IMG/VR virus record: IMGVR_UViG_3300008120_000016
Span: 1-64,000 of that record
Direction: 5' to 3' (one strand)
Source of the DNA: a virus
Length of the DNA stretch: 64,000 bases
Shown here: positions 8,815 to 64,000 of the stretch, piece by piece
Layout of the letters: each line of letters opens with the position of its first letter
Position numbering within the stretch: the stretch's first letter is position 1
Notes under the pieces: generated by a model
What the model was told of the DNA's origin: nothing
Databases searched by the model: none
Seen by the model: only the letters and a program-made list of their open reading frames with translations
Program-made: the position numbers and the translations under genes

Positions 8815-9182
8815 ACTGCATATAAAATTGATAATGTATGTAATCTTCCAGCTGCCTCAAACATTGCATTTATTGTAGCAGGATCTTGTCTTGTTGCATA
8901 TTCTCTTTCTAATTGAGAACAAGAATGTAACATTTCATGCAACATTTTTAATTCTTCATCATTCACTTTGTCTTGAAGATAATTAAGAACATTTTCTGCA
9001 AGAGACCACATTGTAGCACATTTTCCATGAGGATATACATCTGATCTAAGATCTTTAACTGTATCAACAAGAAGCTCAGACATTTGTAAATACATTTTAG
9101 AAACACGTTCTCTTTGAGCTATGTTTATTTCTTTTTTATGTTGTGCTATTGTCACCAACATTTTAATTACATCAAACCACAT
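8811..9182 (-). CDS. Hypothetical helical protein
   Basis: 123 aa ORF overlapping its neighbours. Confidence 0.6.
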   Translation of the reverse strand: MWFDVIKMLVTIAQHKKEINIAQRERVSKMYLQMSELLVDTVKDLRSDVYPHGKCATMWSLAENVLNYLQDKVNDEELKMLHEMLHSCSQLEREYATRQDPATINAMFEAAGRLHTLSILYAV

Positions 9183-9996
9183 TCTTTAAGTTTTTATCTT
9201 CTAACCAATGAATAAGAGAGATGGCTTCCTGTTTTAAATAAGGAAGGTCATATTGAATTACATCCAATACAATAGGATTCCCATCATTATCAAGAGCAGT
9301 AATAGGATTATCAAATTTGTCCCTCCCAGCTTCCTCGAACAAAATGTGATGAATAGTGAGAGATCCTGGACGAAGCTTAGGATTATGCTTAAGAATAATA
9401 TAGAGATACATGCTAAGCTGAAGAGCATAATGATTAATATGGCAATCGTCAAGATGGTTAACAGGAGGATCCATTTTTTGAGTGACCCCTTCCCAATCGG
9501 TAAAGCCTTCAAGTTTTATTTCTTTATTTGTTTTATAATCGGTGATATGTACTTCACCATTTATTACTTCAACTAAATCAGATTGTCCGCATATACCAGC
9601 ACTTTTCAAATATACTAAATGTTCAGGATAAATACCATCTGTTAGTTTTTGATTAGGACTATGTTTAACCCCCTCGATTTCGATGGGTTTAAAAACTGGT
9701 ATTGTATGTCCATGTCTTTCCATATTCTGGAAAGAACATATATCAGATTCTCTACAATTATGATACCATGTCCCAAGTGTTGTTGCTCTGTTAGCTTCAG
9801 CTTTCCAAGCTTGTCTAATTTCTTCTGGTGTCATTCCATACCACTTACTCTTTTTATTTACAGAACACTTTCTAGAAATTTCATCAGCTTTAAAAGGTTG
9901 CTTAAACTTAGATACTAAACTTGTAACACTTAACCAATTTGTACCATCATCACTAACATATTCATGTTTGTCAGGATAAAATTTGATTATGCTCAT
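9172..9996 (-). CDS. PD-(D/E)xK (Cas4/RecB-like) exonuclease
   Basis: GICGQSDLV...HITDYKT and YALQLSMY motifs. Confidence 0.8.
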   Translation of the reverse strand: MSIIKFYPDKHEYVSDDGTNWLSVTSLVSKFKQPFKADEISRKCSVNKKSKWYGMTPEEIRQAWKAEANRATTLGTWYHNCRESDICSFQNMERHGHTIPVFKPIEIEGVKHSPNQKLTDGIYPEHLVYLKSAGICGQSDLVEVINGEVHITDYKTNKEIKLEGFTDWEGVTQKMDPPVNHLDDCHINHYALQLSMYLYIILKHNPKLRPGSLTIHHILFEEAGRDKFDNPITALDNDGNPIVLDVIQYDLPYLKQEAISLIHWLEDKNLKNVV

Positions 9997-10325
9997 ATTC
10001 CTAATTTTTGTTTTAATTTATCTTCCTCTTCTTCAGATAGTTCTGCTTTCCATTTACCAAGAGGACATTCTGAACTAAGAGCTCTAGTCTTTAGTGAAAG
10101 ACTACATCCACATCCACCTTTCTTTTCATTACAACATGGCTGCGTTCCAGGCACCATACACCCGTCACCTTGCACATCTAAAAGTTCACATTCACCACAA
10201 ATTTGCATTCTATGTTGTGCAATCTCTTCTACATCTTCTTTCTTAAATATAGAGTTGGTAATTCCCTCAAGAATCTGACCCTTGCTCTTCCATATCTTTA
10301 TTATGTTTTTTCCTAGACTTGACAT
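9993..10325 (-). CDS. Cys-rich putative Zn-binding protein
   Basis: RMQICGEC, PCC, GCGCSL...KTR...SECPLGKW pattern. Confidence 0.65.
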   Translation of the reverse strand: MSSLGKNIIKIWKSKGQILEGITNSIFKKEDVEEIAQHRMQICGECELLDVQGDGCMVPGTQPCCNEKKGGCGCSLSLKTRALSSECPLGKWKAELSEEEEDKLKQKLGI

Positions 10326-10692
10326 TAGCTTTAGTTTTATGTAGTTTAATAAAGTCTTTTCTTTGGTTTTCTTCTGTTATGACTTTCTGTACAGCTTTTA
10401 AATTAAACAAGTTTTCAGATACTTTAAATCTTGAAATCATTTGTTGCACACCTCTCTGTTTATTTTTTTCTTCCCATCCTTCATAAGATTTTATTTTTCC
10501 TTCTAACTTCCAATGTTTAATTGTAAAGTCTCCAAGGTTTGTTATATGTATTCTTGGATGAGATAAATCCGATAAACTTTTTCTTACCTCTTCCCAATAA
10601 TAGTTTATTACAGATTCAACTAAACCCTCTGATTCATTTAGTTCTTTAGCTACTTCTTTAATAAACTCTTTACTCTTGATTGGTCTCAACAC
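10267..10692 (-). CDS. HU/IHF-like DNA-binding protein
   Basis: SKEFIKEVAKEL...VESVINYYWEEVRKSL...RIHITNLGDF matches the HU fold pattern. Confidence 0.6.
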   Translation of the reverse strand: MLRPIKSKEFIKEVAKELNESEGLVESVINYYWEEVRKSLSDLSHPRIHITNLGDFTIKHWKLEGKIKSYEGWEEKNKQRGVQQMISRFKVSENLFNLKAVQKVITEENQRKDFIKLHKTKANVKSRKKHNKDMEEQGSDS

Positions 10693-11041
10693 TTAAAAAT
10701 TTAAAGTCAAGTAGAACGTTTCCTAATGCTTGTATTTTTAAATCAGGATTAATATAAATTTTCTTTTTATTCTTACCTTCTTTTTTAATTAAGTCTTTCT
10801 TTTCAGCTTTTGTTAAACAGTTTCTAACTGATTGTGTAGAAGAAAAAATTTCTTTAGTATGAGCTTTATTACAAAAACTTGTAAGCTCTTGGTCTCCTTC
10901 TATAGTTAAATATGTTAAACAATCTAAATCTGAATCACTAATCGTTATCTTATTTAAATAACAATGAGTAAGTAGTTGATATTTTACAATATCCCACTTA
11001 TTCATTCTTACTTTTTTGTTTATTTGGTTTACTAGTGCCAT
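10670..11041 (-). CDS. Conserved protein with probable winged HTH
   Basis: QSVRNCLTKAEKKDLIKKEG...IYINP. Confidence 0.5.
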   Translation of the reverse strand: MALVNQINKKVRMNKWDIVKYQLLTHCYLNKITISDSDLDCLTYLTIEGDQELTSFCNKAHTKEIFSSTQSVRNCLTKAEKKDLIKKEGKNKKKIYINPDLKIQALGNVLLDFKFLSVETNQE

Positions 11042-11475
11042 TATAAATCTAGTTTAAAACTGACATAATCTTCTTTTGTATTTTCCCAGTTTTTGTATGT
11101 TAGTATTTCTGTAGCTCCAAAGTTTTGGAATATTTTCCAACTGGCTCCTTTTCTTGCTTCACCAGTTAAATAGTTGTAATCAGAATTAGTCCCCCATTCT
11201 ATAGCCAATCTTATAAGCTCATGACCTAAACCTTTACCCCTGTGATTTGGTAAAACAGTGAAACCATCTATGTGCAGCACGTTGGTTGATTGCCACGACA
11301 ACAAAATCTCACCGATCAAATCTAGTTTTTCTTTAAGCCATATACCTTGGAAGTTTTTTTCTTCCTGTAACATATAAAGTTTATACGAAGGTTCCCATCT
11401 TAATTGAGCTGGATGCTCTTTTTCAAACTTTATTGTTTCCTTATAATCTTTAAGCTTATAGACGGGGGACATCAT
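11041..11475 (-). CDS. GNAT-family acetyltransferase
   Basis: Acetyl-CoA-binding motif A: FTVLPNHRGKGLGHELI. Confidence 0.8.
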   Translation of the reverse strand: MMSPVYKLKDYKETIKFEKEHPAQLRWEPSYKLYMLQEEKNFQGIWLKEKLDLIGEILLSWQSTNVLHIDGFTVLPNHRGKGLGHELIRLAIEWGTNSDYNYLTGEARKGASWKIFQNFGATEILTYKNWENTKEDYVSFKLDL

Positions 11476-11478
11476 TCT

Positions 11479-11793
11479 TTACTTCTTTTTCAATCCTCTT
11501 TCTTTTTTAGCAGGAGTTTCTTCTACCATAACTTCATCTCCCACTTTAAATCCTTGCTCAGCTAATTCAGGATTGTTTTGAATATCTTCATCAGTGATGG
11601 TATGAGGCTTACCTTGTGAAGATGGATTTGTCATCTGTGCAATAAAACTTAAAGCTTTTAACTCTTCAGCTCTAGCTACAGCTAACTTAGTGTTTAATTC
11701 TTGAAGATGAAGTTGCTGACCTTTCACTTCAATTTGCTCTTTAAGAAATTCTAAGATTTCTTCTTTTGTTGGAACTTTTTGTTCTTCTGACAT
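11479..11793 (-). CDS. Hypothetical coiled-coil protein
   Basis: 104 aa ORF in the operon. Confidence 0.6.
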   Translation of the reverse strand: MSEEQKVPTKEEILEFLKEQIEVKGQQLHLQELNTKLAVARAEELKALSFIAQMTNPSSQGKPHTITDEDIQNNPELAEQGFKVGDEVMVEETPAKKERGLKKK

Positions 11794-11810
11794 AACTATG
11801 GGTTTTTGGT

Positions 11811-12140
11811 TTATAATTCAAAATTATCGTCTTCATCTGGAGGAGGTGGGGGAAAATCAATTCCATATATAGTACCGTAATTATTATAATAGTCCTCAAA
11901 TATTTTAGCAAACTGCTCAAAATGAGTATCTATAATATACGTGTTACCGTTTCTTAAAAATACAGTGGTGCAGTTAAACACTTCACTATCTGGCTCATCT
12001 GTAGTCATCTTAATAACATCTACACTACCTAAATCAAATAAAAAAGGTAGCCATTTACCTTTATCTTCTATACCTAGACTATCTGCTTTCTCTTTATCAA
12101 GAGAATAACATTGAACTTTACACCTGTGTACTACTTTCAT
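11811..12140 (-). CDS. Hypothetical protein
   Basis: 109 aa ORF with a Pro/acidic tail. Confidence 0.6.
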   Translation of the reverse strand: MKVVHRCKVQCYSLDKEKADSLGIEDKGKWLPFLFDLGSVDVIKMTTDEPDSEVFNCTTVFLRNGNTYIIDTHFEQFAKIFEDYYNNYGTIYGIDFPPPPPDEDDNFEL

Positions 12141-12355
12141 ATTGATTGACTTTTTCTTGGTGATTGATTATATTGTGAATAGTTCATAAACTTACTCCTA
12201 TTGTTTTGCTTAATCATATTATAAGCAAGCATTCTTTCAGCTAACCCATCTCTAACATCAATTACAGGTATGTTTACTGGCATACCATACTTGTTTGTTG
12301 TTTGAAGATAATGACTAAGTTTATCTTCCACTTCAACCTTTTTCATTTGTTCCAT
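12137..12355 (-). CDS. Hypothetical protein, first gene of the leftward operon
   Basis: 72 aa ORF just downstream of a TAnnTTTG box. Confidence 0.55.
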   Translation of the reverse strand: MEQMKKVEVEDKLSHYLQTTNKYGMPVNIPVIDVRDGLAERMLAYNMIKQNNRSKFMNYSQYNQSPRKSQSI

Positions 12356-12386
12356 ACTATAATATACTTTAAATGTTTAAACTTAA

Positions 12387-12394
12387 CAAATTTA
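12387..12394 (-). promoter_or_regulatory. Bacteroidota sigma-type -7 box (TAAATTTG)
   Basis: Matches the TAnnTTTG consensus 32 nt upstream of the ATG at 12355. Confidence 0.55.
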
Positions 12395-12492
12395 CTTATA
12401 AATATTTTTAACAACATTTTTTATTTATCCCCACCTTGTTAATATACCCTCCCCCCTTATTTCTTTTGTGATAGAGGATGTGAATACTTTCC

Positions 12493-12555
12493 TAGCCAGA
12501 AGCCCCCGGCTGGCTCACAGCTTGGGGGTACCCCCTCAAAGCTGAGGAGGAAAGC
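12493..12555. repeat. GC-rich inverted-repeat cluster incl. perfect palindrome GGGGGTACCCCC (12524-12535)
   Basis: AGCCAG/CTGGCT stem, 12-bp palindrome and CCTCA/TGAGG stem in the intergenic divergence point. Confidence 0.7.
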
Positions 12556-12679
12556 TGAAAACATGGAAAAAAAATCAAACCACAATCCTAGGAAGAAGAA
12601 CAACACACAGAGACACAGAGACAAAGTTCTTTTCCTTTGTAATCTTGATAACTCTATTCACTAACTAAAATCTATTCAA

Positions 12680-12970
12680 ATGAAAAAGAGTGTACAAATC
12701 TTCATCGGTGGCAGAGAGCTGTCTGTCACTAAACTATTATCAGCGTTATTGTTCATAGCATCCATAATATGGTTTGTTATGGGCATAATACAAATCGAAC
12801 CTCAACAGTTAAAGGGACTATTCTTAATCCTAACAACTGGTACATGGATGACAGCATCTGCTTACATATGGCAGATGGCATACCCTGAACACTACAGAAA
12901 CTACAATTATGCAATACTGATATTTAGTATCACAGTGTTGGCATCAATTGGTTATCAGTGGGCTGTATAA
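12680..12970 (+). CDS. Small multi-pass membrane protein
   Basis: 96 aa with three hydrophobic segments. Confidence 0.65.
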   Translation: MKKSVQIFIGGRELSVTKLLSALLFIASIIWFVMGIIQIEPQQLKGLFLILTTGTWMTASAYIWQMAYPEHYRNYNYAILIFSITVLASIGYQWAV

Positions 12971-12985
12971 CAGCTCAATCTCATT

Positions 12986-13013
12986 AAGCCCTTATTTCCA
13001 TAAGGGCTTTTTT
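12986..13013 (+). terminator. Rho-independent terminator
   Basis: AAGCCCTTAT-TTCC-ATAAGGGCTT followed by a T-tract. Confidence 0.75.
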
Positions 13014-13118
13014 CCTTTATAATATTGGAGAATAGTCACAGGGCTTAACATTTAAACCTGTTATAAATAAGAGCACTATCTCTCCTTATTATATATTCCT
13101 TAACCAAAAAGCAAAAAC

Positions 13119-13292
13119 ATGAAAAAGCTTTTAACACTCATCATTGTAATTGGATTATTTACTAGCTGTACACGCTACACTGTAGACGGTGTCACTAGTG
13201 GAGGTTGCGGAGTTTGGTATGAAAAAAAGTTCAAACCAAACAAAGTACCCAAACAAAGAAACATTCACAACAGAATGCCAGTAATCCATTAA
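13119..13292 (+). CDS. Small putative lipoprotein (57 aa)
   Basis: Hand translation MKKLLTLIIVIGLFTSC...; classic signal II with lipobox. Confidence 0.6.
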   Translation: MKKLLTLIIVIGLFTSCTRYTVDGVTSGGCGVWYEKKFKPNKVPKQRNIHNRMPVIH

Positions 13293-13368
13293 TTCATTTA
13301 AGACCCTTTAATTAGGGTCTTTTCAAATTCCTTTATAAACTCGGTATATATATTCCTTAATCTTAAAA

Positions 13369-13683
13369 ATGTTTAAAATGAAAAAAGAAGGAGCAGTTAT
13401 TTTAATTGCAGCCATTTTAGTAGGCTGCTTAACATTTGCGTTATCAGTTGGATGCAGCAGTAAATCAGGTCAAAGAACTAAAAAGAAGTTCAGAACTATT
13501 GACAACAGCATCAAAATCACATTTGTTGATTCCGTAGACGGTAGACCTACATACTATGTAGAGTTTCCAGACGGAAGAGGGTTGGATCAAATGTATCCAG
13601 AAGAAATCGCCAACAGTCTCAACACCGGTCACTGGAGTTATGATGAGACATTGATTATTGTTGGAGAAGATTCTGCACCTTAA
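13369..13683 (+). CDS. Putative lipoprotein
   Basis: Hydrophobic N-terminus ending LSVGC-SS. Confidence 0.6.
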   Translation: MFKMKKEGAVILIAAILVGCLTFALSVGCSSKSGQRTKKKFRTIDNSIKITFVDSVDGRPTYYVEFPDGRGLDQMYPEEIANSLNTGHWSYDETLIIVGEDSAP

Positions 13684-13729
13684 ACCTTATTAGTTAGGTT
13701 AGGAATGAGTAGGGACTTAACAGTCCCGA

Positions 13730-13774
13730 AAAATATATTCCAATCTCAACTTTCAGTTGAGAACACCTTTATAA
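13730..13774 (+). promoter_or_regulatory. Conserved-flank triloop hairpin element 1 (candidate virion-RNAP promoter)
   Basis: AAAATATATTCCAA-TCTCAACT-TTC-AGTTGAGA-ACACCTTTATAA. Confidence 0.6.
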
Positions 13775-13876
13775 TCTTGATATAATAATTATATAATAGC
13801 AGCATTATATAGTTAAGTGGTTATTTTTTTCCTTTAATAATTCGATAGTTATTTCTTAACCAAAAAATTATTTAAA

Positions 13877-14305
13877 ATGAAAAGCGAAAAACTATTCGGA
13901 TTTAGTTCCATTAGAATTAACGGTCAAGTATGCTTGACCACGAACATCACAATCTCTGCTGCCACAACACTCAACGCAGAAATGCAAGAACTCCGAGATA
14001 TGGGAGTATCTGTATGGCACACACCAAAATTAGTTGGTAGAAAAGGTAAACAGAAAGAAAAACAGTTTATCCAAATCCAACATAACACATTCGATTTTCT
14101 CCAACATTCTGCTGTTAGAACTGCAGTTCAACTATTCCTCGAGAAAGTGTATTTAGAACGCATCAGATGCAAATACTCTAAATATCACAAATCCGAGCAA
14201 ACCAATATTACTCCGCAAGAATACTACGAGTATGAAGGATTAAATTGGGATGAACCAACAGAACAACCGGTTGCAGACTTCAACATTGAAGACATTGATT
14301 TTTAA
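13877..14305 (+). CDS. Hypothetical early protein
   Basis: 142 aa ORF with an acidic tail, own upstream element and terminator. Confidence 0.65.
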   Translation: MKSEKLFGFSSIRINGQVCLTTNITISAATTLNAEMQELRDMGVSVWHTPKLVGRKGKQKEKQFIQIQHNTFDFLQHSAVRTAVQLFLEKVYLERIRCKYSKYHKSEQTNITPQEYYEYEGLNWDEPTEQPVADFNIEDIDF

Positions 14306-14399
14306 GAGTGTTCATAATCACAGCCTTCTATTTCTATAGAGGGCTCTTTTTTTCCTTTATTAAATCGGTACATATTCTTTAACCTTAAATTGATTTGCT

Positions 14400-14612
14400 A
14401 TGATGCACTTCTTATTCTCTACAGAAATCGTTTCTTCATTTGAGAACGATGTTGACATTCACGTCGAATTTAAAGACGTATTGGTAGCTGCTGCTGATTA
14501 TGAAAAAGCAGTAGAAACATTGGAGTACATTTGTAACTACCGAAACGAGTACAAGTATTCTCAATTAGCAACCTACAACTATATTGGTTGTTATGAGAAT
14601 GATGAGTATTAA
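14400..14612 (+). CDS. Hypothetical early protein
   Basis: 70 aa acidic ORF. Confidence 0.55.
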   Translation: MMHFLFSTEIVSSFENDVDIHVEFKDVLVAAADYEKAVETLEYICNYRNEYKYSQLATYNYIGCYENDEY

Positions 14613-14667
14613 CCTCTTTAGGTTAAGAATCCCCGAAGCAGTACAATCTGTTAGGGGATTTTTTTCT

Positions 14668-14706
14668 AAAATATATTCCATTCACCTACGGTGAACACCT
14701 TTATAA
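14668..14706 (+). promoter_or_regulatory. Conserved-flank triloop hairpin element 2
   Basis: AAAATATATTCCAT-TCACC-TAC-GGTGA-ACACCTTTATAA. Confidence 0.6.
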
Positions 14707-14803
14707 TATTGGATAATAATAGTATCGTGTACCGTGTATCGTGGTACATTTTACCTTTTGAAAATAGGTATTTATATTTCTTAATCCATTAAAAAAATAA
14801 CAA

Positions 14804-15322
14804 ATGGAAAATCTGATTAAAAAATCATTAGAATTGGCAGGATTTCAAAACGTCGAAGCTCTTACAAAAGTTGTGTCTTTATCTCCCAATCCAAGGGTAG
14901 CCGCAGAAGTATTGTTAAACTGTCACACACCAATGACACCTGAAAACTTTGGGTTTTATTGGACTCGTAAGTATGACAGTGATAAACAAGTTACAATCAG
15001 TTCTGTAGATGAATTGGCTAATACCGTAACCTATCTCGTGTATACATACGCGACCCAAACGGTTTGGTTTCCAACAGAAGCTGATTATAAAGCCGAAAAC
15101 TTTGTTATTGAAAAACCTGAAAAGAGTTACACTAGTAGGAACATCAGAACAAAGGGCTATAAGTATGAAGAAAACACTGAAAACATTGAGTCATTCCTTG
15201 GAAATCATACCAAATCAGATGCAGGAAAATTCTATAAATGGCTCGAAGAGTCAGAATTGTATGTTAACCCCAAACTGCAAGAGGCTATTGCTGCTGTAGA
15301 TAAGGATCTTATTGACTTCTAA
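14804..15322 (+). CDS. Hypothetical early protein
   Basis: 172 aa ORF. Confidence 0.65.
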   Translation: MENLIKKSLELAGFQNVEALTKVVSLSPNPRVAAEVLLNCHTPMTPENFGFYWTRKYDSDKQVTISSVDELANTVTYLVYTYATQTVWFPTEADYKAENFVIEKPEKSYTSRNIRTKGYKYEENTENIESFLGNHTKSDAGKFYKWLEESELYVNPKLQEAIAAVDKDLIDF

Positions 15323-15372
15323 ATGTTTGTTTTCCTGTTTGTTTGAAGGGCTGCACATTAGTGTAGCTCTTT

Positions 15373-15410
15373 AAAATTATTCCAATCCCCTTCGGGGAAC
15401 ACCTTTATAA
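15373..15410 (+). promoter_or_regulatory. Conserved-flank triloop hairpin element 3
   Basis: AAAATTATTCCAA-TCCCC-TTC-GGGGA-ACACCTTTATAA. Confidence 0.6.
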
Positions 15411-15512
15411 GCTTGGCAGTTTATAGTTTATTGGACATTTTGTAGTTTGTAGTTATTATTTTTCCTTTATTAAATCGTATTTTATTATTCACCCTCTAAA
15501 TCCCCATTCAAA

Positions 15513-16025
15513 ATGGCAACAGAGAAACTTACTATTAGCAGCGTAGACAATTTCCAACAGAGATTTGGTTCAACAGACTACGCAATGTTTAACGCAACTA
15601 CTCCTAATGGAGATAGTATTGTAACGGGTATTTCTTATACCCTATTACAAAGCCGTGGTATTAACACAGACTTGCTTGATTCTTTAGCAGGTTCTCTTAT
15701 CCTTGTAAACGATTCTACGGATATCCGTACAGGAGAGTTTATTGAGGGTAATGAAAGGGTTCGTAAAGTAGCAGAGAAAGAACCCGGAAATTCAGTTCTC
15801 CTTGTTTCAAAGGCTAATGGCTCTATTATTAAATCAGAGCTTTATTCTACTGAAACCAAAGATTTAGCTTCTTCCACACAGGCTAAATTCAAAGTAGAAA
15901 TGGAGAAAGAGAGAGTACTTCAGGCAGCCCGTCGTACTGCAGCAAAGTTTGCTATTAAAGCTGAACCCACAGTTGCAGCTCCTAAAACTGAAGCAGCCCT
16001 TGACACGAACGAAGACCCGTTCTAA
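15513..16025 (+). CDS. Hypothetical protein (possible ssDNA-binding-like)
   Basis: 170 aa; beta-rich core and an acidic C-terminal tip ending DPF, similar to SSB tails (inference). Confidence 0.45.
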   Translation: MATEKLTISSVDNFQQRFGSTDYAMFNATTPNGDSIVTGISYTLLQSRGINTDLLDSLAGSLILVNDSTDIRTGEFIEGNERVRKVAEKEPGNSVLLVSKANGSIIKSELYSTETKDLASSTQAKFKVEMEKERVLQAARRTAAKFAIKAEPTVAAPKTEAALDTNEDPF

Positions 16026-16043
16026 TAAGCCGGTTGAACTATT

Positions 16044-16075
16044 AAGAGAGCCTATCTAACAATAGGCTCTCTTTT
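16044..16075 (+). terminator. Rho-independent terminator
   Basis: AAGAGAGCCTAT/ATAGGCTCTCTT stem followed by Ts. Confidence 0.75.
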
Positions 16076-16165: not shown

Positions 16166-16181
16166 TGTTCCACGTGAAACA
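16166..16181. promoter_or_regulatory. parS: parS-like centromere site TGTTCCACGTGAAACA
   Basis: One mismatch from the perfect bacterial parS palindrome TGTTTCACGTGAAACA; intergenic. Confidence 0.7.
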
Positions 16182-16388: not shown

Positions 16389-17364
16389 TTGCTTCTCTCT
16401 GTTCAGAAGGGTTTAATAGACGTATTAACCGTTGTAAATGACAGATATTCCGGTAAGTTCCCGGACGTAATAGGAAACAGTTGTTCCTATGTAGGCTGAT
16501 ATATCTGAATATATATCCGTTAAGTGATCTGTCCTATGATCTGGTCACCTTTTAAGTAAGGCGGTAGGGTAAACAGTCAAAACACTTAACGATAAGTATA
16601 CAGTTCAAACCTTCAGAGTTGTAAAATACTCACGGTGTATACGATAAGGGACTATGTCCTGAACTAATTGAACCGGCTGCTTATAGTCGTTAGGATAAAG
16701 TGGGTAACCACTATAAAGTGTGCAATGTTTAAACAAGCATTGTATGCACAGGGTTAAACCTGGCCGAGTAAGCATACGAGCAACACATTCAACGGAGATG
16801 TCTCTGAGAATGTACAGTCTTAGCATAGGCTGTTGAGTGAGAAATCACAATAGGAAAACTCGTAGTGATATGTGAAATGATTCCACCAAGAGTCAAATCA
16901 CGTTGATCAGATAGATGTTGCAGGGGTCTGGTAACAGGGTCCTCATCTATCCGTAGACTGGTAATCTACACTGGGATGTCGTGTACGTTTTGCTCAAAAG
17001 GCAGAAAGCACATTCTGACAACACATCCTGGATTATGCTATTGTTTAATTAATAACTAAATTAATTAAAGCAAAAGTTTGTCAGGTGTTTGTGTGAAACC
17101 ATCTTATCTGTATGAAATATGACAGCACAATGAGTACCGCAAGGAAAATTGTGAAATCTAGAGAGTATATCTAAGGAGCTGCAGGGATGTAGCTTGGAAC
17201 TATCCCGTTCACTTGGTAGAAATCAAAGTTTATGTAGCACAAACAAAGATCCTTCTGGAGAGAAGTCAAACACTGATGGTCCCATTTACAGGTTAGTAAT
17301 AACTTGTGTGTGTATGCAATGGTAACGTTGCTAAAATAATGGGAGGAAAGGTCAACACTCAGCC
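16389..17364 (+). ncRNA. Large structured non-coding RNA candidate (GOLLD/ROOL-class?)
   Basis: About 975 nt, GC-enriched, no credible ORF; many stems capped by GNRA-type loops (GTGG-GTAA-CCAC, GTGA-GAAA-TCAC, CTG-GTAA-CAG, CC-GCAA-GG, GTTA-GTAA-TAAC); promoter box at the 5' end; ends CACTCAGCC before a T-run. Confidence 0.7.
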
Positions 17365-17404
17365 TTTTATTTACTTTGTATTTCTAAATCCATAAATATA
17401 TACA

Positions 17405-17959: not shown

Positions 17960-18031
17960 TACCATAATATTATTAAGGTATTACTATAGAGCTCAAATTT
18001 GAGCCCTACTATTTTTTAATCTTTAAATTGT

Positions 18032-18304
18032 TTGCAAATGCAAAACGAATTATTAATTATGCTAGCAACAGCTATGCCAAAAGAGTTATTATTTGAAAAA
18101 ATAGAAGAAGCTATTGCTGAATACAAAGAAGCAAAGCTATTAGGTAAAAATCTTGACGAAGCTGAAAAATCTATTGGGTTTGCTTGTCACCTGATGATTA
18201 TGAACTTAATCACAAAAGGAGAATTATCTGGTTCATTAGATGTGATCAACAAGATAAAAGAGATGAAACAAAGAGATGATTTTTTTAAAATGGATAAAAA
18301 CTGA
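18032..18304 (+). CDS. Hypothetical helical protein
   Basis: 90 aa ORF; true start may be an internal ATG. Confidence 0.55.
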   Translation: MQMQNELLIMLATAMPKELLFEKIEEAIAEYKEAKLLGKNLDEAEKSIGFACHLMIMNLITKGELSGSLDVINKIKEMKQRDDFFKMDKN

Positions 18305-18309
18305 TTATA

Positions 18310-18534
18310 ATGGAAAAATTAATTCGATTTTCAATCTTATCATTAACCTACCTTACATTGTTAATACTATTCTATTGTGCAATTCCTACTGTTAGTTGGA
18401 TTTTTGGGGGAGAATTTCTCTCAGTAGCACAGCACCCTATGCATGTGCTATTTGTAGGTGTGCTTTTAATAGTAATGCTCGGTGTAATATTCTCAGAGTG
18501 TTTTGATTCTAATTTTCGTAGTAAAAAAAGTTAA
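18310..18534 (+). CDS. Small two-TM membrane protein
   Basis: Two hydrophobic segments. Confidence 0.55.
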   Translation: MEKLIRFSILSLTYLTLLILFYCAIPTVSWIFGGEFLSVAQHPMHVLFVGVLLIVMLGVIFSECFDSNFRSKKS

Positions 18535-18537
18535 ATT

Positions 18538-18684
18538 ATGGAAGATCAACACAAATTAGAACCACCACCTGAGCAAATTAACATTGAAACAGGTAAGAAA
18601 ATGTGGGTAATTGATGGTTATAAAATCTGGGCTCGTACATATCAAGAAGCCTTAGAGTTATTACCAATGATTCAATCATTTTAA
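18538..18684 (+). CDS. Small hypothetical protein (48 aa)
   Basis: Hand translation MEDQHKLEPPPEQINIETGKKMWVIDGYKIWARTYQEALELLPMIQSF. Confidence 0.5.
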   Translation: MEDQHKLEPPPEQINIETGKKMWVIDGYKIWARTYQEALELLPMIQSF

Positions 18685-18877
18685 AATGTGCAGTATAATG
18701 CAAAAAATTAAAAAAATTCTCTTCGGAGAAAGAATTAAGGGGGAAAAACTTCCCCCTTTTAAACCATTGAAAGAAAGACCAATGGACGAAAAAGATTTTT
18801 ACAAATGGTGCAAAGAATTTAATGTATCGTCAAGATCAAATCGTAAACCAATTTATTTAAACTAAAACAAACCAGAA

Positions 18878-19654
18878 ATGGCTACAAAAATTGCTACAGC
18901 AAAACAGTTTTACAAAGAAGCATTAAAAAATATTAAATGGCTTTCTTTAACAGGTAATATTAAATTTAATTACCTGGCAGGTATTAACAGAGCTATTAAT
19001 CCTGGTCAAGTGACTAAGCTTGCTAAATCATTAGAAATGATGGGTATTATTAGACCTGTTGTTATAGCCGAATTATCATTTGTAAATGGTAAATTGTCTA
19101 AATACATAATAGACGGTCAGCATATTTTTAACGCATTGATTAGACTTGGTTGGGAAATACCATATGTTATTATTAAAGTGGATAGTAAACAAGATCTTGT
19201 AGAGAAAATAGCAATGTTAAATGCTAGTTCTAAAACATGGAGTATGCAAGATTATGTAACTGCCTGGTCAAGCTTAAAAGAAGATTATGTAAAGCTAAAT
19301 CATTATTTTCAAGTGTATGATTTAGAAATAACAGAACTTGCTGCCATTCTTATGGGTAATATAAGAGGTGGTGGTAACATAACAAAAATTCTTAAGGCAG
19401 GTGAGTTTAGAATTATTAATGAGCAAAAAAACGTAGGTATTCTTAACAATCTTACAGACATGCTCAAGGTGGTACCAAGAATGAACAGATTTGAAAACAG
19501 ATATGCTGTTAAAGAGTATGTTAAATTCTTGAGATCTACACCTAAATATGATCATAAAGTATTTTTAGCAAAGCTTTCTAAAAACAAAGAAAAGTTTATT
19601 CTTGCTACACAAGAAGAAGGTAAACTTTCTGAACTCTTTGAAAAGCTTTCTTAA
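18878..19654 (+). CDS. ParB/Srx-like N-terminal domain protein
   Basis: NRAIN...VTKLAKSLEMMGIIRPVVI...YIIDGQH motif of the ParB/sulfiredoxin fold. Confidence 0.7.
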   Translation: MATKIATAKQFYKEALKNIKWLSLTGNIKFNYLAGINRAINPGQVTKLAKSLEMMGIIRPVVIAELSFVNGKLSKYIIDGQHIFNALIRLGWEIPYVIIKVDSKQDLVEKIAMLNASSKTWSMQDYVTAWSSLKEDYVKLNHYFQVYDLEITELAAILMGNIRGGGNITKILKAGEFRIINEQKNVGILNNLTDMLKVVPRMNRFENRYAVKEYVKFLRSTPKYDHKVFLAKLSKNKEKFILATQEEGKLSELFEKLS

Positions 19655-19656
19655 GA

Positions 19657-19936
19657 AGCTGAGGCTAGCGTTGGTTAGAACCTACATATGTTCATGACTT
19701 TGTAGGATTGGGGGGCACATTCTTGCCCTAAGCGATTAGAAATTAGGACTGATCACCCATGAGTGTGTGCTAGACAGGATTCTAGCTAATCAGGGATGAA
19801 ACCTTGTAATGGTGGATAATCAACCACTCCCAAGCCTGGGTTGCATTTATGCGTATACTACCATATGTAGGGATTTAATCTGCTACAATTGACTAGTTAC
19901 TGGGTATCACAAGAGGTGGGTTAAGCCTCTTTTTTT
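19657..19936 (+). ncRNA. Putative structured RNA ending in an intrinsic terminator
   Basis: GC-enriched ORF-free stretch with stems CCTACA/TGTAGG, GGGCA/TGCCC, CTAGA/TCTAG, GTGG/CCAC and CCCA/TGGG; terminator AAGAGG/CCTCTT plus Ts at 19911-19936. Confidence 0.45.
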
Positions 19937-20226: not shown

Positions 20227-20535
20227 TTATGTAAACTTACACTATAGGTTTGCATGGACTTCCCTATTTGTATATACTATAGTATGATACTATTAGGTTC
20301 TCAGTCCACACCTTATTTATCTGACGTCAGGAGCCTATAGAGTATTAACGTGAAGCAACAGATGTACTATGACCAGCTAGTAGTGTCCCTGACATGATCA
20401 ATTAGGCCTGGGAAAACACGAAGACTCAGTAATTATGGGATCTATCGCAGACAACTTAGAACTATAGTCCCTGATGTGGATAAATTTGGTAATATTGTGG
20501 ATTTTTACATAAATTTGGTATTAAAACCAATTATT

Positions 20536-20676
20536 ATGTACAAAAGAGTAGCACGAAACATCAGTAAAGAAGGAAATTCTTACAGAGTTCGTTATCAAAA
20601 AAATGGTAAACGATTTTCAAAGTTCTTTTCTAAAAGAACAGAAGCAATAGCTTATAAGAAAAAAGTTATTGGTTGA
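20536..20676 (+). CDS. Small basic protein, AP2/Arm-like DNA-binding domain
   Basis: MYKRVARNISKEGNSYRVRYQKNGKRFSKFFSKRTEAIAY; start reassigned to the ATG at 20536. Confidence 0.5.
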   Translation: MYKRVARNISKEGNSYRVRYQKNGKRFSKFFSKRTEAIAYKKKVIG

Positions 20677-20687
20677 AATTGTTTAGA

Positions 20688-20762: not shown

Positions 20763-20768
20763 CAAACT

Positions 20769-58541: not shown

Positions 58542-61500
58542 TTAACAAGATAATCTTTTCAAAAACTCTTCAATTTTTTCACCAGATAGTTTTTCAGCAT
58601 CGTATTTCTTTTGAATATCTTGAACTGATTTAACTTTTTCAAATATCACTCTAGCAGAATCAAGATTATTATTTAAATACGAAGCAATTGTATATTCAAT
58701 ACTATCTTTAGAATAATCTGTAATAGAACCAATTTTAGATAAACTTAGGATATCCTTTCTCATACCATTTTCATCACCCCATTTCATAGCTTTATTACTA
58801 TCCAAAGATATAATAATACCTTTAGATGTTACAACATAATCTGTATTTCTGTAATTAATAATATTAGCTTTATTTGCCATTGCCTGGAGATTATCCTTAG
58901 ATACACTCTTTTTAGCAGCAGTTCCTTCTTTTAATGGATTATATATTTGAATTGTGTTATTTTTATTAAACTTAGTTACTATATACACTTCATCTTGATA
59001 CTTAACATATCTACCTGGTTCAATTTCAAAAGTTTTAACTGGTTCATTTTTAACCTCTGTTTTGGATTCAGAAACATATTGTATACCTGTTTTTAAATCA
59101 ACATCTTCTATGTAAATTTCTCCACTCTCTTTATCAGTTAAATAATACAAACCATTGTCTTGTAATAACCATTTCGATGTCTGAGGAGCATTTTCTCTTC
59201 TACCTGTAACAGGATTATAAAATACTTTAAACTTAGTTGCACTTGTAAAGAATTCTTTAGGAGCAACGTTGTTTGACTTTGATAAATATGTTTTATAAGC
59301 AGCTACATCGTCATCACTTATAACCTTTACACCTTTACCAGATGGTTTAGCAATAGGGGTAGTAGATTTAATTGCTGGTTTAGAACCTTCTAATTGTTTT
59401 TCTAATTCGTTTATTTCATCACTTGTATAATCTAAAATTACCTTAGAAAGTTTATCAAAAGCATATTTAAACTCAGAATCTACTTTAAATACTTTTTCAC
59501 CTTTCTTTCTTGATCCTATATAAATTTCATTTTCTTCTTTGTCGTACATAAAAAGATCATCCCCTGTAGGTTTAGGAAAAACATCCATTTCACCAGCACC
59601 AGTTCCAAAAGGAACATAATAAAACTGACCTTCTACATTTAATAAACCTTTAGAAACTTTTTTACCTCCAATAGCTGTAATAAATTGGTCTACTCCTTCT
59701 TTACCTTTTAATATGACAACGTCAGCAGGTTTGGTTCTTTTCATTGCTTTATCAGATATGCCAGGTAATCTACCATGTCCGTAGATAGAATATGTAGCTC
59801 CTATTTCATTTAAATAATCAATAAATGGAGTATCTACACCTTCCATATCACCTACTATAAAAGTATAATCTCCTGCATCGTGTACCTTTTTAATAGCAAA
59901 TTTTGTATCTTCTTCTAAAGGTTTTCCTTTTAAAGTACCATTTCTAGCTAACATAACATGACCTCTTTCACTATCACTAAAAACATAAATAGTTTTTTCA
60001 CTATTGGGTGTTTTTTGAACTTTCCAATCTATAGGTTTTCCTTGACGATCATTAGGTAATTCTTTTTTCCATCTCGCAAGTATTTCTTTTGCTGATGTAT
60101 GAGTAGAACTTTTTCCATTATAATCTGTGACCTCACCAATAAAGAATTTTGCATCTTTTCTCATAGCTACATCAGCATCTGTACCACGTGAAGCACTTGG
60201 ACGATTCCATTTAAATACTTTTACTTCAGATAATCCTGGAGAACTTTCATCTCTTATACTTTTACCAGGCTTATCTTTTATTCTTTCATTAATTAAATCA
60301 ACAAGTACGTGTGCATGACTTCTATAGCCTGCTTTAAAGTATACAAAAGTTTTATTATCAAGTCTTCCTGAATCAATTACCCCAAGTATCCAATCTCTTC
60401 TTTCAGGTTGCACATCAAAAAAGTCTTCTTTTCTCAACCACTTTTCATAATTATTAGCAGCTTCTATAATACCATCCATTCCATCTTGAACAGTTTTAAT
60501 AGAACCTTGAAATCCTTTTTCACTCCAAGGATTTCCAAAATGTAAATTTTCATCTACACCTGGAATATCATCACCGGGATTAGGTCTCATTGAATAAATA
60601 CCTTCCTTACGTCTAGCTGCTTGTTTAGTTTCAAAAGTACCAGCTTTAATTACTAATCTTGTTTGATTACCCAAAGGTGTCATAACATTTCCTGGTTGTG
60701 CAGAAGATGTTTGTGTAATAATCTTTTTAAAATCAAGTTTATACTTACGAGTGTACCATTTACCAAGACTACTTTTATCTCCGGTTAATGTATCTTTTGA
60801 AATTCCAGTGTAGAATATAGGATTATTTGAACGAAACATGCTCCAAAAATGTTTATAGACATCACTTTTTTGTTTCGTACCAAAATCAGCTATTAAATTC
60901 TGATAACTTTCAAAGGCATATCCGTATAATTTATTAATTATTTGAATAGGTGCTACCGATGTATAACTTACATCAGAAGTATTCATGCCAGATTGAAAAA
61001 TTGAATATAAAGCAAGATCTTTAAAAAAACTAACTACTAATCTATCTATATCATCTTTAGGTTCAATATTTACCAAACTTTCAAACTGACTAATAATACT
61101 TTGTTTTTCTATTGGGTTAGAACTATTTTCAACTAATTTAAAAGTATTTAATCGATTATTATTCTCTCCTATTTGTAATACTATATTTTTAATAAAAGGA
61201 TATCTTTCAGCTAATGAATTAAAAGCTAAAACGTCAGCACCAGAAACATTGTCTTTTATTTTTCTAGTTTTTAATTCATACCAATTATCAACCATTTTAG
61301 TAGTAGTAACTAATTCTAATAAATACTCATTTAAATCTTTATCAGTATTAAATGTTTCTTTAAAAAATTTAGTACCTTCTTCAGATTTGTCTAAGCCATT
61401 TTGTAACAAGTAATTAGCAAAATCATTTTTTGCAGTTCGTGCTACTTTTGACATATCATCTTGAGAAATAATCTGTTTATTATCACGACTATCTCTCATT

Positions 61501-64000
61501 AAAGTTATTTCATTTAAAAGAAACTCATTAAAATCTTCATCATTTCTTATTGGAAATAACTCACTAAGAATTGATTTAATATCATCTCCAACATCTAAAG
61601 GACTAATAATACTATTCTTTTTAATATTTATTAAAGTTTCACTGCTTAAAATGTTTAAATTAAAGTCCACTGATCTTTCATACTCATCGTTTTTAGCATA
61701 AACTTCAAATGAACTTTTATAAGGATTTGTATCAAAATCTAAAAATCTTTGTGCTTCTGTCATACTGTTAGACTGCTCTCTTAAATTTAATAATTCTAAG
61801 AGCATAGACAGCTGTATAATTTTTCCTTTATCAGTTAATGTTGATATATCAAAATCAATTTCACCATTGTCTTCTCCTTTTTGAATACCTTTATACAACA
61901 TTTCTTCTGTAAAAAACTGATCGTAAGATCCATTTACAAAACTTATATTTCTTTCTAATGTTTTTTCTATTGCTTTTTTACTAGTATCTTGTTGAGCAAA
62001 TCCAAGTTCTAACAATGTTCTTTTTAAAGCTAATTGTCTTGAACCTTCATCTCCATCATAATTAAGCTGAGTATGAAGATTTTGATACATCGACAGGTTC
62101 TTAATGTATGTTCTAATGGCAGGTTGATTAACAAAATATAATATCTTTTTAGAAGACATCCCAGCATATTTCATATAAAATATAATAGGACTTAATTCTG
62201 TTACAACATTAGCTGCAAAAACATAATCATCTCTAGCAACATCTACAAAAGCATTAATAAACTCACTAAAAAACTCTGATTTTAATTGATTGTCTTCGTC
62301 AAATATGCTTGCAAAATTTATGTTTTCAATTAAACCTTTTGAATTTTTTTCAATGTAATTTGAATTAAAAAATGTTTTAATTTGACTTGAATTGAAAAAA
62401 TGAGAATTACCTTCTGCATTAGCAAGTTGAAACATTACATTAAAGGTATTTGCTTTAGCTGCAATACCTAAATCACTTTTACCTTTGAGAAGTGATATGA
62501 ATTTTCTTAAGTTTTTTTCTCGATCAAGAATATCTGAATTCTTATAATCTGTTTTAGGTCTATCTTTTCCTTCTTCCTTTCTACCAAGTTTCTCAAATAT
62601 TTCATCTATTATAGGTAATATGTGATAATTTTCTGATGGAGTTACTAGTTCCATGTAGTTAGCAGGATGTAAAATAATATCAGCCATTACATCATAAAGC
62701 TTATTTTGTATATTACCTTTTATGTGATTGTATTTATATAATCTATTATGAACTACTTCAATTTCTTTTGTAATATCATTATAAATACCATCAATATATT
62801 CTTTGTTCTGATCACGAACTAGTTTTAAATATTCTGTCTCAGAATTAAATAAATTTTCTATTGAATTTACAAGTGTTTCTAAACCTTGTTTTCTTGTGTC
62901 GACCCAAAGCATAGGATTAAATACATTAAGATTATTATCTTCCATGTATTTTTCATATTCTCCTATATCAAAAGTGATATTAGAACGAATTAAATTTTGT
63001 AATACACTATCTGGATGATCATTGTTTTCAGCTGTTCTTGATAATGCTGATTTCATATTATCTGCAGCCTCAGCATCCATTACAGCAATAATTGTCTGAA
63101 CTCTTCTTAATAAACGATTAAGTTTATCTCGTGTTTGAGTATCTTTTCTTAAAGCTTTTCTATATGTACGTTCTAAATCTTTATACTCTTGAAGCAAATC
63201 ATTGACGGTAGTTCTTCTTGCTAGTTTTAAATAACTCAAATCAGCAACAGCTTCTGCTTTTTTATCTTGTATGTTTTCTTGTAAAATAGAATCATTATAT
63301 TCAAAATTGATATAATTACCATTTTTATCCAGATTAGGATAGAACACAAACATCTTATCAATATCAAAGTCAGATCCGGATTTAATAACCACTTCAGATG
63401 GCATAATAATAGCATCACCTACACTAGCCGGTAAAAATTCTTTTACCATCATTACATCTAAAAAGTTTCTACCTTGTGTTGGAATCCTATAAGCAATCAT
63501 AGTAATTGCTTTTTCATTTTCTGCTCTCCAAGCATCATCTCGTATAGCTTGATTTAATCTCTCTCTTGTTCCAATTTTTGAACCATTCCAGTTAAGATTT
63601 AATAAATTTAACCATTGACCAGTGAGAGCTATTTTGACATCCATTTTACCAACAATAACATTATTTGCTATTTGTTGAACATCATAGTAATTTAATTCAG
63701 AATTACCATATGTCTCAACAGCTTTTTTACTATCATCCTTATTAAATATTGTAGGTTCTGATCCTGTAATAGCCATCTGAACTAACATAGATCCGTTAGT
63801 CTTATATCTTACTACTCTATTATTAATAGCAGATATAATTATTCCTTCAATAACTTGAGCTTGTACTGCAGCATCTAATGGAATTTCAAACTTACCTGTT
63901 GTTTCATTATATGAAAGAGCCTTTTTTACATTGCTGTCTTGATTCTTTTTATCTATCTCTTTAAAAAAGTATTCAACTAATTTATTTAAATCATTAACTT
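58542..64000 (-). CDS. Virion RNA polymerase (crAss-like), C-terminal >1800 aa; 5' end outside the window
   Basis: YRIPTQG and SGSDFDIDK (DFDID at 63357-63371) match the crAss-like/phi14:2 gp66-type catalytic signature. The frame stays open from 63788 to the window end. Confidence 0.88.
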   Translation of the reverse strand, partial: VNDLNKLVEYFFKEIDKKNQDSNVKKALSYNETTGKFEIPLDAAVQAQVIEGIIISAINNRVVRYKTNGSMLVQMAITGSEPTIFNKDDSKKAVETYGNSELNYYDVQQIANNVIVGKMDVKIALTGQWLNLLNLNWNGSKIGTRERLNQAIRDDAWRAENEKAITMIAYRIPTQGRNFLDVMMVKEFLPASVGDAIIMPSEVVIKSGSDFDIDKMFVFYPNLDKNGNYINFEYNDSILQENIQDKKAEAVADLSYLKLARRTTVNDLLQEYKDLERTYRKALRKDTQTRDKLNRLLRRVQTIIAVMDAEAADNMKSALSRTAENNDHPDSVLQNLIRSNITFDIGEYEKYMEDNNLNVFNPMLWVDTRKQGLETLVNSIENLFNSETEYLKLVRDQNKEYIDGIYNDITKEIEVVHNRLYKYNHIKGNIQNKLYDVMADIILHPANYMELVTPSENYHILPIIDEIFEKLGRKEEGKDRPKTDYKNSDILDREKNLRKFISLLKGKSDLGIAAKANTFNVMFQLANAEGNSHFFNSSQIKTFFNSNYIEKNSKGLIENINFASIFDEDNQLKSEFFSEFINAFVDVARDDYVFAANVVTELSPIIFYMKYAGMSSKKILYFVNQPAIRTYIKNLSMYQNLHTQLNYDGDEGSRQLALKRTLLELGFAQQDTSKKAIEKTLERNISFVNGSYDQFFTEEMLYKGIQKGEDNGEIDFDISTLTDKGKIIQLSMLLELLNLREQSNSMTEAQRFLDFDTNPYKSSFEVYAKNDEYERSVDFNLNILSSETLINIKKNSIISPLDVGDDIKSILSELFPIRNDEDFNEFLLNEITLMRDSRDNKQIISQDDMSKVARTAKNDFANYLLQNGLDKSEEGTKFFKETFNTDKDLNEYLLELVTTTKMVDNWYELKTRKIKDNVSGADVLAFNSLAERYPFIKNIVLQIGENNNRLNTFKLVENSSNPIEKQSIISQFESLVNIEPKDDIDRLVVSFFKDLALYSIFQSGMNTSDVSYTSVAPIQIINKLYGYAFESYQNLIADFGTKQKSDVYKHFWSMFRSNNPIFYTGISKDTLTGDKSSLGKWYTRKYKLDFKKIITQTSSAQPGNVMTPLGNQTRLVIKAGTFETKQAARRKEGIYSMRPNPGDDIPGVDENLHFGNPWSEKGFQGSIKTVQDGMDGIIEAANNYEKWLRKEDFFDVQPERRDWILGVIDSGRLDNKTFVYFKAGYRSHAHVLVDLINERIKDKPGKSIRDESSPGLSEVKVFKWNRPSASRGTDADVAMRKDAKFFIGEVTDYNGKSSTHTSAKEILARWKKELPNDRQGKPIDWKVQKTPNSEKTIYVFSDSERGHVMLARNGTLKGKPLEEDTKFAIKKVHDAGDYTFIVGDMEGVDTPFIDYLNEIGATYSIYGHGRLPGISDKAMKRTKPADVVILKGKEGVDQFITAIGGKKVSKGLLNVEGQFYYVPFGTGAGEMDVFPKPTGDDLFMYDKEENEIYIGSRKKGEKVFKVDSEFKYAFDKLSKVILDYTSDEINELEKQLEGSKPAIKSTTPIAKPSGKGVKVISDDDVAAYKTYLSKSNNVAPKEFFTSATKFKVFYNPVTGRRENAPQTSKWLLQDNGLYYLTDKESGEIYIEDVDLKTGIQYVSESKTEVKNEPVKTFEIEPGRYVKYQDEVYIVTKFNKNNTIQIYNPLKEGTAAKKSVSKDNLQAMANKANIINYRNTDYVVTSKGIIISLDSNKAMKWGDENGMRKDILSLSKIGSITDYSKDSIEYTIASYLNNNLDSARVIFEKVKSVQDIQKKYDAEKLSGEKIEEFLKRLSC

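Follow-up and report, generated by a model that had tools for sequence, protein, structure and literature searches.

How does a virion RNA polymerase (vRNAP) that accepts only single-stranded template find its starts on injected double-stranded DNA? The crAss-like phages include the most abundant human gut viruses and, to our knowledge, all of them carry a giant vRNAP related to the eukaryotic RNAi polymerases. In the sole functional study that we came across, on phi14:2, the vRNAP gp66 was found to transcribe the early genes and, in vitro, to use only single-stranded or denatured DNA, and no common motif was seen upstream of the early transcripts (bioRxiv 10.1101/2020.03.07.982082). A bench-testable candidate for an answer is a hairpin element with conserved flanks, present in three copies in the first 64,000 nucleotides (nt), hereafter the window, of IMG/VR virus record IMGVR_UViG_3300008120_000016, the 124,719-base genome (G000) of an uncultured, distant freshwater crAss-like phage. 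The phage is classed as such because its giant protein with the motif DFDID matches crAss-like RNA polymerase (RNAP) genes, the habitat being taken from metatranscriptomes. We read the elements as a class of early promoters with a structural hairpin, most likely recognized by the injected vRNAP, a reading to which we give somewhat less than an even chance.

An earlier note, made from the letters of the window alone, had pointed out three such elements and proposed them as N4-like promoters. By scanning with the pattern TATTCCAW-N(10-30)-ACACCTTTATAA we recovered all three, at 13736-13774, 14674-14706 and 15378-15410 on the plus strand, against no match in 100 shuffled sequences, and these were also the only matches in the whole genome, where a covariance model (see below) likewise gave exactly three. 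The copies have in common the 5' flank AAAAT(A)TATTCCA and a 3' conserved block of approximately 19 nt, ACACCTTTATAA-NN-TTG(R), which exceeds the extent first given to it. Between these shared flanks the stems of 8, 5-6 and 5 base pairs (bp) differ and are perfectly paired, as the note had it (the arms of element 1 are TCTCAACT and AGTTGAGA), and the loops, TTC, TAC and TTC on the top strand, do read GAA, GTA and GAA on the bottom strand. Folding with DNA parameters yielded the expected hairpin on either strand, at -3.7 to -6.4 kcal/mol. A scan of IMG/VR for the exact flanks gave 22 single matches, none with a stem, and these are regarded as chance since they lack stems.

The position of the elements is promoter-like. 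In the window a minus-strand block (1-12355) is bounded by a divergent junction, past which seven small genes of early type lie on the plus strand (12680-16025), each with its own hairpin 3' of it, and beyond the last of these follow 1.35 kb without credible open reading frames (ORFs), a ParB-like gene, tRNA-Ile and tmRNA. All elements are found in this early-type cluster only, each between the hairpin or terminator that closes the preceding gene and a further gene on the same strand, with 103, 98 and 103 nt from the end of the 12-mer closing the pattern to the next ATG, in agreement with the distance of about 100 nt noted before. The further claim that each copy follows a terminator-like hairpin is true for elements 2 and 3, where T runs are present, but not for element 1, whose preceding hairpin has none. 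In the hairpin before element 3, a compensating G-to-A change was found in the related contig L168. The early region had no megablast match among GenBank phages, and neither the early proteins nor a 2224-amino acid (aa) protein matched PHROGs or Pfam.

Relatives were identified in IMG/VR with the vRNAP as query, namely G001-G006 at 69-43% identity and others at 27-30%, and copies of the element in them were located with a relaxed pattern followed by direct reading of the early region. G002 and G003 have two copies each and G004, G005 and G006 one each, with the same flanks and other stems, and homologues of gene G, the gene downstream of element 3, led to eight further metagenome contigs with one or two elements each. 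Altogether 20 copies, 17 of them distinct, were found across G000, G002-G006 and the metagenome contigs L168-L179, nine of the related genomes and contigs contributing 14 distinct copies beyond the three in the window. The 17 distinct copies have 14 different stem sequences, with stems of 3-8 bp and loops of 3-4 nt, and all defined pairs are Watson-Crick. The invariant columns read TT.CA in the 5' flank and AC.CC.T in the 3' flank, with one more T beyond the latter, and within the hairpin the sole constant base is the first T of the loop (A on the template strand).

Covariation was assessed in an ungapped alignment of the nine copies with a 5-bp stem and a 3-nt loop. In this, 93% of the cells pair and four of the five pairs show compensatory two-sided changes; none of 500 shuffles reached the observed covariation, and sliding the partner by one to three columns lowered pairing to 22-49%. 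The structure is thus kept without the stem sequence, as the earlier note had claimed from the three copies, and the search of related genomes which it proposed has turned up both flank conservation and stem covariation. A covariance model built from the same nine copies also recovered copies outside its training set (copy 1 of G000, both copies of G003 and that of G004), and in each relative whose vRNAP is at least 43% identical it located one to three copies, none of them outside the early-type cluster. No such element was found with the model or the pattern in G007-G010, four complete relatives at 27-30% vRNAP identity, and when G007, G008 and G010 were searched de novo for hairpins between shared 8-mers, the result was mostly AT-rich noise and not informative. 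In 12 out of 12 relatives (genomes and contigs with the early region read), one copy lies directly upstream of the gene G homologue. G004 has no conserved signal other than the element, which stands there about 45 nt upstream of the ATG. A mobile repeat was considered and rejected, since in all relatives the element keeps its place in front of one and the same gene.

The full element consists of a 5' box, ATTCCA(N), the hairpin of 3-8 bp, and an 18-19-nt 3' block, (R)AC(W)CCTTTATAA-NN-TTRG, and in all 17 distinct copies the hairpin is separated by only 1-2 nt from the 5' box and by 0-2 nt from the 3' block. Since the stem length varies while the flanks abut it, the spacing of the two boxes is constant only if the hairpin forms, which favors intrastrand pairing, in DNA or in RNA, and argues against a conventional two-box duplex promoter. 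From the same constancy we infer that the inverted repeat is extruded by negative supercoiling. An intrinsic terminator was likewise rejected, as there is no T run, (R)AC(W)CC follows the hairpin in all copies, and a terminator scan calls only the neighboring hairpins.

A position weight matrix (PWM) of the 3' block, applied to five genomes, scored three-quarters of the hairpin copies at 20-26 bits and nearly all other sites at 18.5 bits or lower. The exceptions are one copy in G003, which lies nearer to its runner-up (21.3 bits), and the copy in G005, which at 16.7 bits scores below one other site. The best match without a hairpin is found at 7818-7868 (+), antisense within the gene 7777-8289 (-), and contains TTCCAT, an AT-rich near-palindrome and ACTCCTTTAAAAGATTG. 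This site reaches 16-18.5 bits in G000, G002 and G003, and recurs in G005 (12.6 bits, not the best there) and, by pattern, in G006. In each of the four genomes scanned it points the same way as the early genes, although the opposite strand is conserved coding sequence at this place. Coding constraint could have kept it as a coincidence, or it might be an antisense start signal.

Assembled contigs from four freshwater metatranscriptomes cover parts of the region, the cluster stretches without RNA cover (12101-13201 and most of 14303-14669) being kept out of the evidence. The cover is taken to be RNA rather than DNA carry-over because depth is zero at 12101-13201, 17973-19440 and 21276-22000. 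Contigs from two studies start at 15426 and 15432, i.e. 16 and 22 nt past element 3, and another starts at 14743, 37 nt past element 2, which places the starts 34-55 nt past the loop centers. Among the RNA contigs listed, none crosses an element or joins 15326 to 15426. As assemblies at a depth of 3-8 such contigs cannot show starts, but they give a weak hint of transcription starting at or just past the elements. The two starts past element 3 also lie upstream of a proximal box at 15458 (see below), and this argues against proximal boxes as the only promoters.

Whether the hairpin acts in DNA or in RNA was considered by means of the loops, the folding energies and the pairs. On the top strand the 17 distinct copies have the loops TTC (5), TAC (4), TATC (2), TTTC (1), TAT (1) and TAAA (4), two of the TAAA copies differing only outside the hairpin core. 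The template strand accordingly has a G(N)1-2A loop (GAA, GTA, GAAA or GATA), usually closed by C-G, in 13 of the 17, and the coding strand in none. The template-strand GNA rule put forward for the three window copies therefore stands for these, but is not universal. Five copies hold the exact sequence GCGAAGC, GCGTAGC, GCGAAAGC or GCGATAGC, which we take to be the well-known DNA mini-hairpins of exceptional stability. A sheared G:A geometry of this kind has been held responsible for the stability of the hairpin in N4 promoters (PMC4496689). Folded as RNA, several of the stems are marginal (-0.8 to -2.3 kcal/mol), and not one G-U is present among about 65 defined stem pairs, unlike in the neighboring terminators, which do have G-U. 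Judged by sequence, these data lean towards a DNA hairpin on the template strand.

An element working at the RNA level would instead be transcribed, by read-through from upstream or from a start at the TTCCA box, and would serve as a processing site, a 5' stabilizer or a nut-like antitermination signal. The lambda nut site, i.e. boxA plus the boxB RNA hairpin, acts in the RNA downstream of a promoter, and its anatomy of a conserved linear box beside a short covarying hairpin in a terminator-rich early region is shared by the element. One RNA contig (15426-16419) indeed passes the terminator at approximately 16040-16070, a processing site would likewise leave RNA ends just downstream, and three copies have a T-G pair at the base of the stem on the top strand. 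Unlike at nut, however, no promoter-sized conserved sequence precedes the TTCCA in this clade, where the terminator of the previous gene fills the space, and the loop class fits DNA better, UUC and UAC on the top strand being outside the known stable RNA classes while their complements belong to the stable DNA class. The lack of G-U pairs, the marginal RNA stems, the absence of an Rfam match for the element and the contigs listed, none of which crosses a copy, also count against action in RNA, and we consider it improbable.

A more distant relative, G008 (contig L193, 29% vRNAP identity), bears on the same alternative. In its early cluster (10800-13700) a 22-nt box, CATATTTACTTAAA-N4-TCCAT, occurs five times on one strand, twice with a hairpin and a TCCCTTTATCA block behind it. 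If the 22-nt box is the promoter, the hairpin is transcribed. The likeness to the element lies in the same-strand repeats confined to the early arm, in the TCCAT end, which resembles the 5' box, and in the two copies followed by a hairpin and a CCCTTTATCA block; the difference is that the strongly conserved part is upstream of the hairpin in G008 and downstream of it in the clade studied here. The G008 box may represent a less strict version of this element in which the conserved portion precedes the hairpin.

The 3' block, or at least its core, also occurs without a hairpin. Such cores, with a T run in front, are found at several places in the cluster (Table 1) as well as in G003, G004 and L176. 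A hairpin-less box lies before every gene of the early cluster (12630-15495, several sites), composed of a T run, CCTTTAWWAA and TCGRTA/TTGG, then TATTYCTTAAYC at 15-20 nt before the ATG, its first part being the core of the 3' block of the hairpin elements. By its sequence the block looks like a promoter core in two versions, with and without a hairpin, and recurrence before other cluster genes is what would be expected of a promoter core.

This leaves a composite arrangement to be weighed, in which the 18-19-nt block alone is the early promoter while the hairpin and the 5' box form a separate upstream module, which could stop, or insulate against, phage polymerase arriving from the gene before it, or could be a structure that activates from upstream. 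In front of at least four other early genes, and in the three relatives just named, the core does stand without its hairpin, every element comes immediately after the end of the previous gene, and the RNA contigs start approximately 24-45 nt past the start of the core, as fits a promoter wholly 3' of the hairpin. The invariable abutment of the hairpin on both boxes nevertheless suggests a single recognized unit; moreover, a canonical terminator already precedes two of the three copies, and no hairpin element is found after gene G, the last of the cluster, where a stop signal would be expected. On balance we judge the composite arrangement unlikely.

Promoters for the host polymerase are of a different type. 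In Bacteroidota the sigma-A promoter has TTTG at -33 and TAnnTTTG at -7, and the phi14:2 middle promoters P108-P110 carry both. In G000, boxes of this host type (TTTG...TAAATTTG) are found at 12387 (-), 16375, 20481/20510, 31088 (-) and 38403, and none within the early cluster (12680-16030). In non-coding DNA TAAATTTG has eight copies, compared with about 1.8 expected by our estimate from base composition, and the sites precede the divergent minus operon, the non-coding RNA region, the tRNA and tmRNA, and two further units. The hairpin elements differ from these promoters, with no TAnnTTTG in or beside them and the 3' block one base out of register. The idea of a variant host sigma-A promoter in the 3' block, with a dimeric regulator binding at the inverted repeat, draws on the TATAA inside the block and on copy 1, which matches a sigma-70-type promoter at 11 of 12 positions (TTGAGA-18-TATAAT). 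That match is not kept in the other copies or in relatives, a sigma-70-type scan gave as many matches as in shuffled sequences, no -33 TTTG stands at the right distance, and true host-type boxes exist elsewhere in the genome. As to the operator, it was rejected because the stems vary between copies of one genome, so that no single sequence-specific dimer fits them all. We hold this explanation to be very improbable.

The prospective reader of the elements is encoded at the end of the window, on the minus strand. With tblastn, the giant DFDID protein matched 104 phage records at 24-27% identity (E down to 1e-23), including the crAss002 'RNAP catalytic subunit', the PhiCrAssBcn 'RNA polymerase' and Cellulophaga phages, while phmmer of the giant proteins against PDB gave no match to 6VR4. 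The DFDID RNAP that the earlier note had placed in the window is thus there as a distant homologue of the crAss-like vRNAPs, and on its sequence the 3082-aa protein is a candidate vRNAP. A second GSDFDIDK string, which matches the giant RNAP's catalytic motif exactly, occurs at 49500-49525 (+), near the C-terminus of a 281-aa DUF932 protein (48705-49550), and is probably a coincidence.

Two known systems invite comparison. The early promoters P1-P3 of phage N4 are read by the injected vRNAP gp50, which starts approximately 11 nt past the center of the hairpin loop (PMC4496689). As in N4, a few copies precede early genes, and the phage injects an RNAP of its own; a short inverted repeat closes on a 3-nt loop (stems of 8, 5(6) and 5 bp in the window, compared with 5-7 bp in N4-type hairpins); the stem bases are free as long as pairing is kept; the template strand has a G..A-type loop, here in most copies; the polymerase family needs a single-stranded template; and there may be a link to single-stranded DNA-binding protein (SSB), which N4 requires from its host and for which an SSB-like gene stands directly downstream of one copy here. 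Unlike in N4, the enzyme is an unrelated two-barrel DFDID polymerase rather than a T7-like single-subunit RNAP, the conserved bases are in the flanks instead of in a GC-rich heptamer inside the hairpin, centered at -11, the loops are not uniform, stems go down to 3-4 bp, hairpin-less core copies exist, and the start may lie further from the hairpin. The label N4-like therefore holds for the short stem, the 3-nt loop and the freely varying but paired stem; with recognition bases elsewhere and an unrelated polymerase, the element is not a member of the N4 family.

With phi14:2, whose type of vRNAP had been said to transcribe single-stranded DNA, as gp66 does, the phage shares a homologous polymerase with the same DFDID motif (by tblastn), a small early-gene cluster followed by long, highly transcribed non-coding DNA, and middle and tRNA genes with host-type TTTG/TAnnTTTG promoters. 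The motif is obvious and conserved across the clade here, in contrast to phi14:2, where the published study found none. Our own search of the phi14:2 early region gave no repeated hairpin with shared flanks, only one isolated 7-bp/GTA hairpin at 98030, and a literature search found no described crAss-like early promoter.

Gene G itself is predicted to encode an SSB-like OB-fold protein. Its AlphaFold model (pLDDT 78) has an OB fold and a long C-terminal helix, and the disordered, acidic tail has PF as its last residues, resembling the C-terminal tip of SSB, and the top Foldseek matches are all OB-fold single-strand binders, including bacterial SSBs and PrgE, at weak E values of 5e-3 to 0.1. 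It has no Pfam or PHROG match, its homologues form only 10 clusters among 5.8 billion proteins, and a related-loci search with the protein found no relatives, its alignment showing too little conservation for a search of this type. The phi14:2 protein g004 was compared as a possible homologue and rejected.

In the promoter reading favored here, negative supercoiling of the injected DNA would extrude the inverted repeat, and the extruded template (bottom) strand would usually present a loop of G(N)A or GNNA type on a C-G closing pair. The injected two-barrel vRNAP, needing a single-stranded template, might then bind the junction of the two flanks and start within or just past the 3' block. One hairpin promoter would always drive the SSB-like gene, and its product may in turn help to open the hairpin-less T-tract versions of the core before the other early genes, i.e. 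a feed-forward step. The more specific proposal, that these are N4-style structural promoters arisen by convergence, with a two-barrel RNAP acting at an extruded GCGNAGC-type mini-hairpin plus flanks in an SSB-led two-step early program, we regard as doubtful; it would give this polymerase family its first defined promoter. Confirmation of the element as a promoter would mean a second, independent origin of DNA-hairpin promoters and supply a rule for annotating early transcription units in crAss-like phages.

Several points weigh against the promoter reading. Four of the 17 distinct copies, those with TAAA or TAT on the top strand, have no G..A loop on the template strand, and the nearest-neighbor DNA model gives equal stability for both strands, so that DNA folding does not discriminate between them; for these two reasons template-strand folding is put forward conditionally. 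A start near 15420-15432 would place the hairpin approximately 25-40 nt upstream, unlike the N4 geometry, and conservation falls on the flanks, where N4 has it within the hairpin. Since the core also occurs by itself, not every early gene needs the hairpin, and the phi14:2 early region has no such repeated element. To these are added the G008 boxes, two of which would put the hairpin inside the transcript, and the low depth of the RNA contigs.

Table 1. Coordinates of the hairpin elements, their surroundings and the candidate vRNAP gene in the window.
Feature	Position	Strand	Details	Basis
Element 1	13730..13781	+	5' flank AAAATATATTCCAA 13730-13743; stem 13744-13751 / 13755-13762 (8 bp); loop TTC 13752-13754; 3' block ACACCTTTATAATCTTGAT 13763-13781	pattern; covariance model E=2.7e-4, copy outside training set
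Element 2	14668..14713	+	5' flank 14668-14681; stem TCACC 14682-14686 / GGTGA 14690-14694, 6 bp with T14681-A14695; loop TAC 14687-14689; 3' block 14695-14713	pattern, covariance model
Element 3	15373..15417	+	5' flank 15373-15385; stem TCCCC 15386-15390 / GGGGA 15394-15398; loop TTC 15391-15393; 3' block 15399-15417; directly 5' of SSB-like gene	pattern, covariance model
Hairpin-less 3' core	12630..12652	+	TTTTCCTTTGTAATCTTGATA, before first cluster gene	sequence reading
Hairpin-less core	13008..13032	+	T run and CCTTTATAATATTGGAG, directly after terminator 12986-13009	
Hairpin-less core	13324..13346	+	ATTCCTTTATAAACTCGGTA, before gene 13369	PWM 16.1 bits
Proximal box	13824..13862	+	T7-CCTTTAATAATTCGATAGTTATTTCTTAACC, between element 1 and its gene	
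Proximal box	14346..14380	+	T7-CCTTTATTAAATCGGTACATATTCTTTAACC, before gene 14400; no hairpin element in spacer	
Proximal box	15458..15495	+	T5-CCTTTATTAAATCGTATTTTATTATTCACCC, between element 3 and gene G	
Hairpin without T run	13712..13727	+	GGGACT-TAAC-AGTCCC, after gene 13369-13683	sequence reading
Intrinsic-terminator-like hairpin	14629..14666	+	ATCCCC...GGGGAT and T7, after gene 14400-14612, before element 2	
Terminator-like hairpin	15347..15372	+	10 bp, two G-T pairs on plus strand, after gene 14804-15322, before element 3	
142-aa gene	13877..14305	+	downstream of element 1	no family match
172-aa gene	14804..15322	+	downstream of element 2	no family match
Gene G, 170 aa, SSB-like (predicted)	15513..16025	+	downstream of element 3	AlphaFold, Foldseek
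Giant protein, candidate vRNAP	58545..64000 (gene to 67790)	-	C-terminal 1818 of 3082 aa in window	DFDID at nt 63371

Some further features of the region were observed. At the divergent junction (12440-12560) there is a conserved non-coding element, roughly TAGAGGATGT ... CAGAAGCCCCCGGCT ... GGGGGTACCCCC, found at the equivalent place in G002, G003, G004, G005, L168, L171 and L173. Another conserved stretch, of about 200 nt and without ORFs, is present in G002 (L127, approximately 11650-11870), G003 (L139, approximately 5700-5870, minus strand), L177 and L179, where it extends from a hairpin-less core box to the terminator before the first hairpin element and ends in CTTATAACTTTGA..GTAATACCACAACAGCCTTAGTCGGCA; it is a candidate small early RNA, absent from G000. 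A parS-like sequence, TGTTCCACGTGAAAC, lies at 16166-16181 and also at the equivalent site after gene G in L176, at about 1500.

Upstream of tRNA-Ile and tmRNA (20481-21179, plus strand) a tandem host-type promoter was found, with TAAATTTG at 20481 and 20510, the latter within a complete TTTG-N-TAAATTTG unit. In each of the four metatranscriptomes the tmRNA is abundant, and its 3' end, placed at 21177 by adapter read-through, agrees with ARAGORN. A very abundant non-coding RNA covers 16611-17365 (+) at a depth of 44-103, compared with 2-8 for the early genes. Adapter read-through places its natural ends at 16642 and 17345, and the host-type box TAAATTTG lies at 16375. The Rfam family GOLLD (RF02032) matches 16971-17365 over the full model (E=3.9e-21), with 83 bits against a gathering score of 150. 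Lastly, RNA contigs at a depth of 13-26 (three runs) at 19608-19901, comprising the end of the ParB-like gene and a 293-nt spacer, may represent another small RNA.

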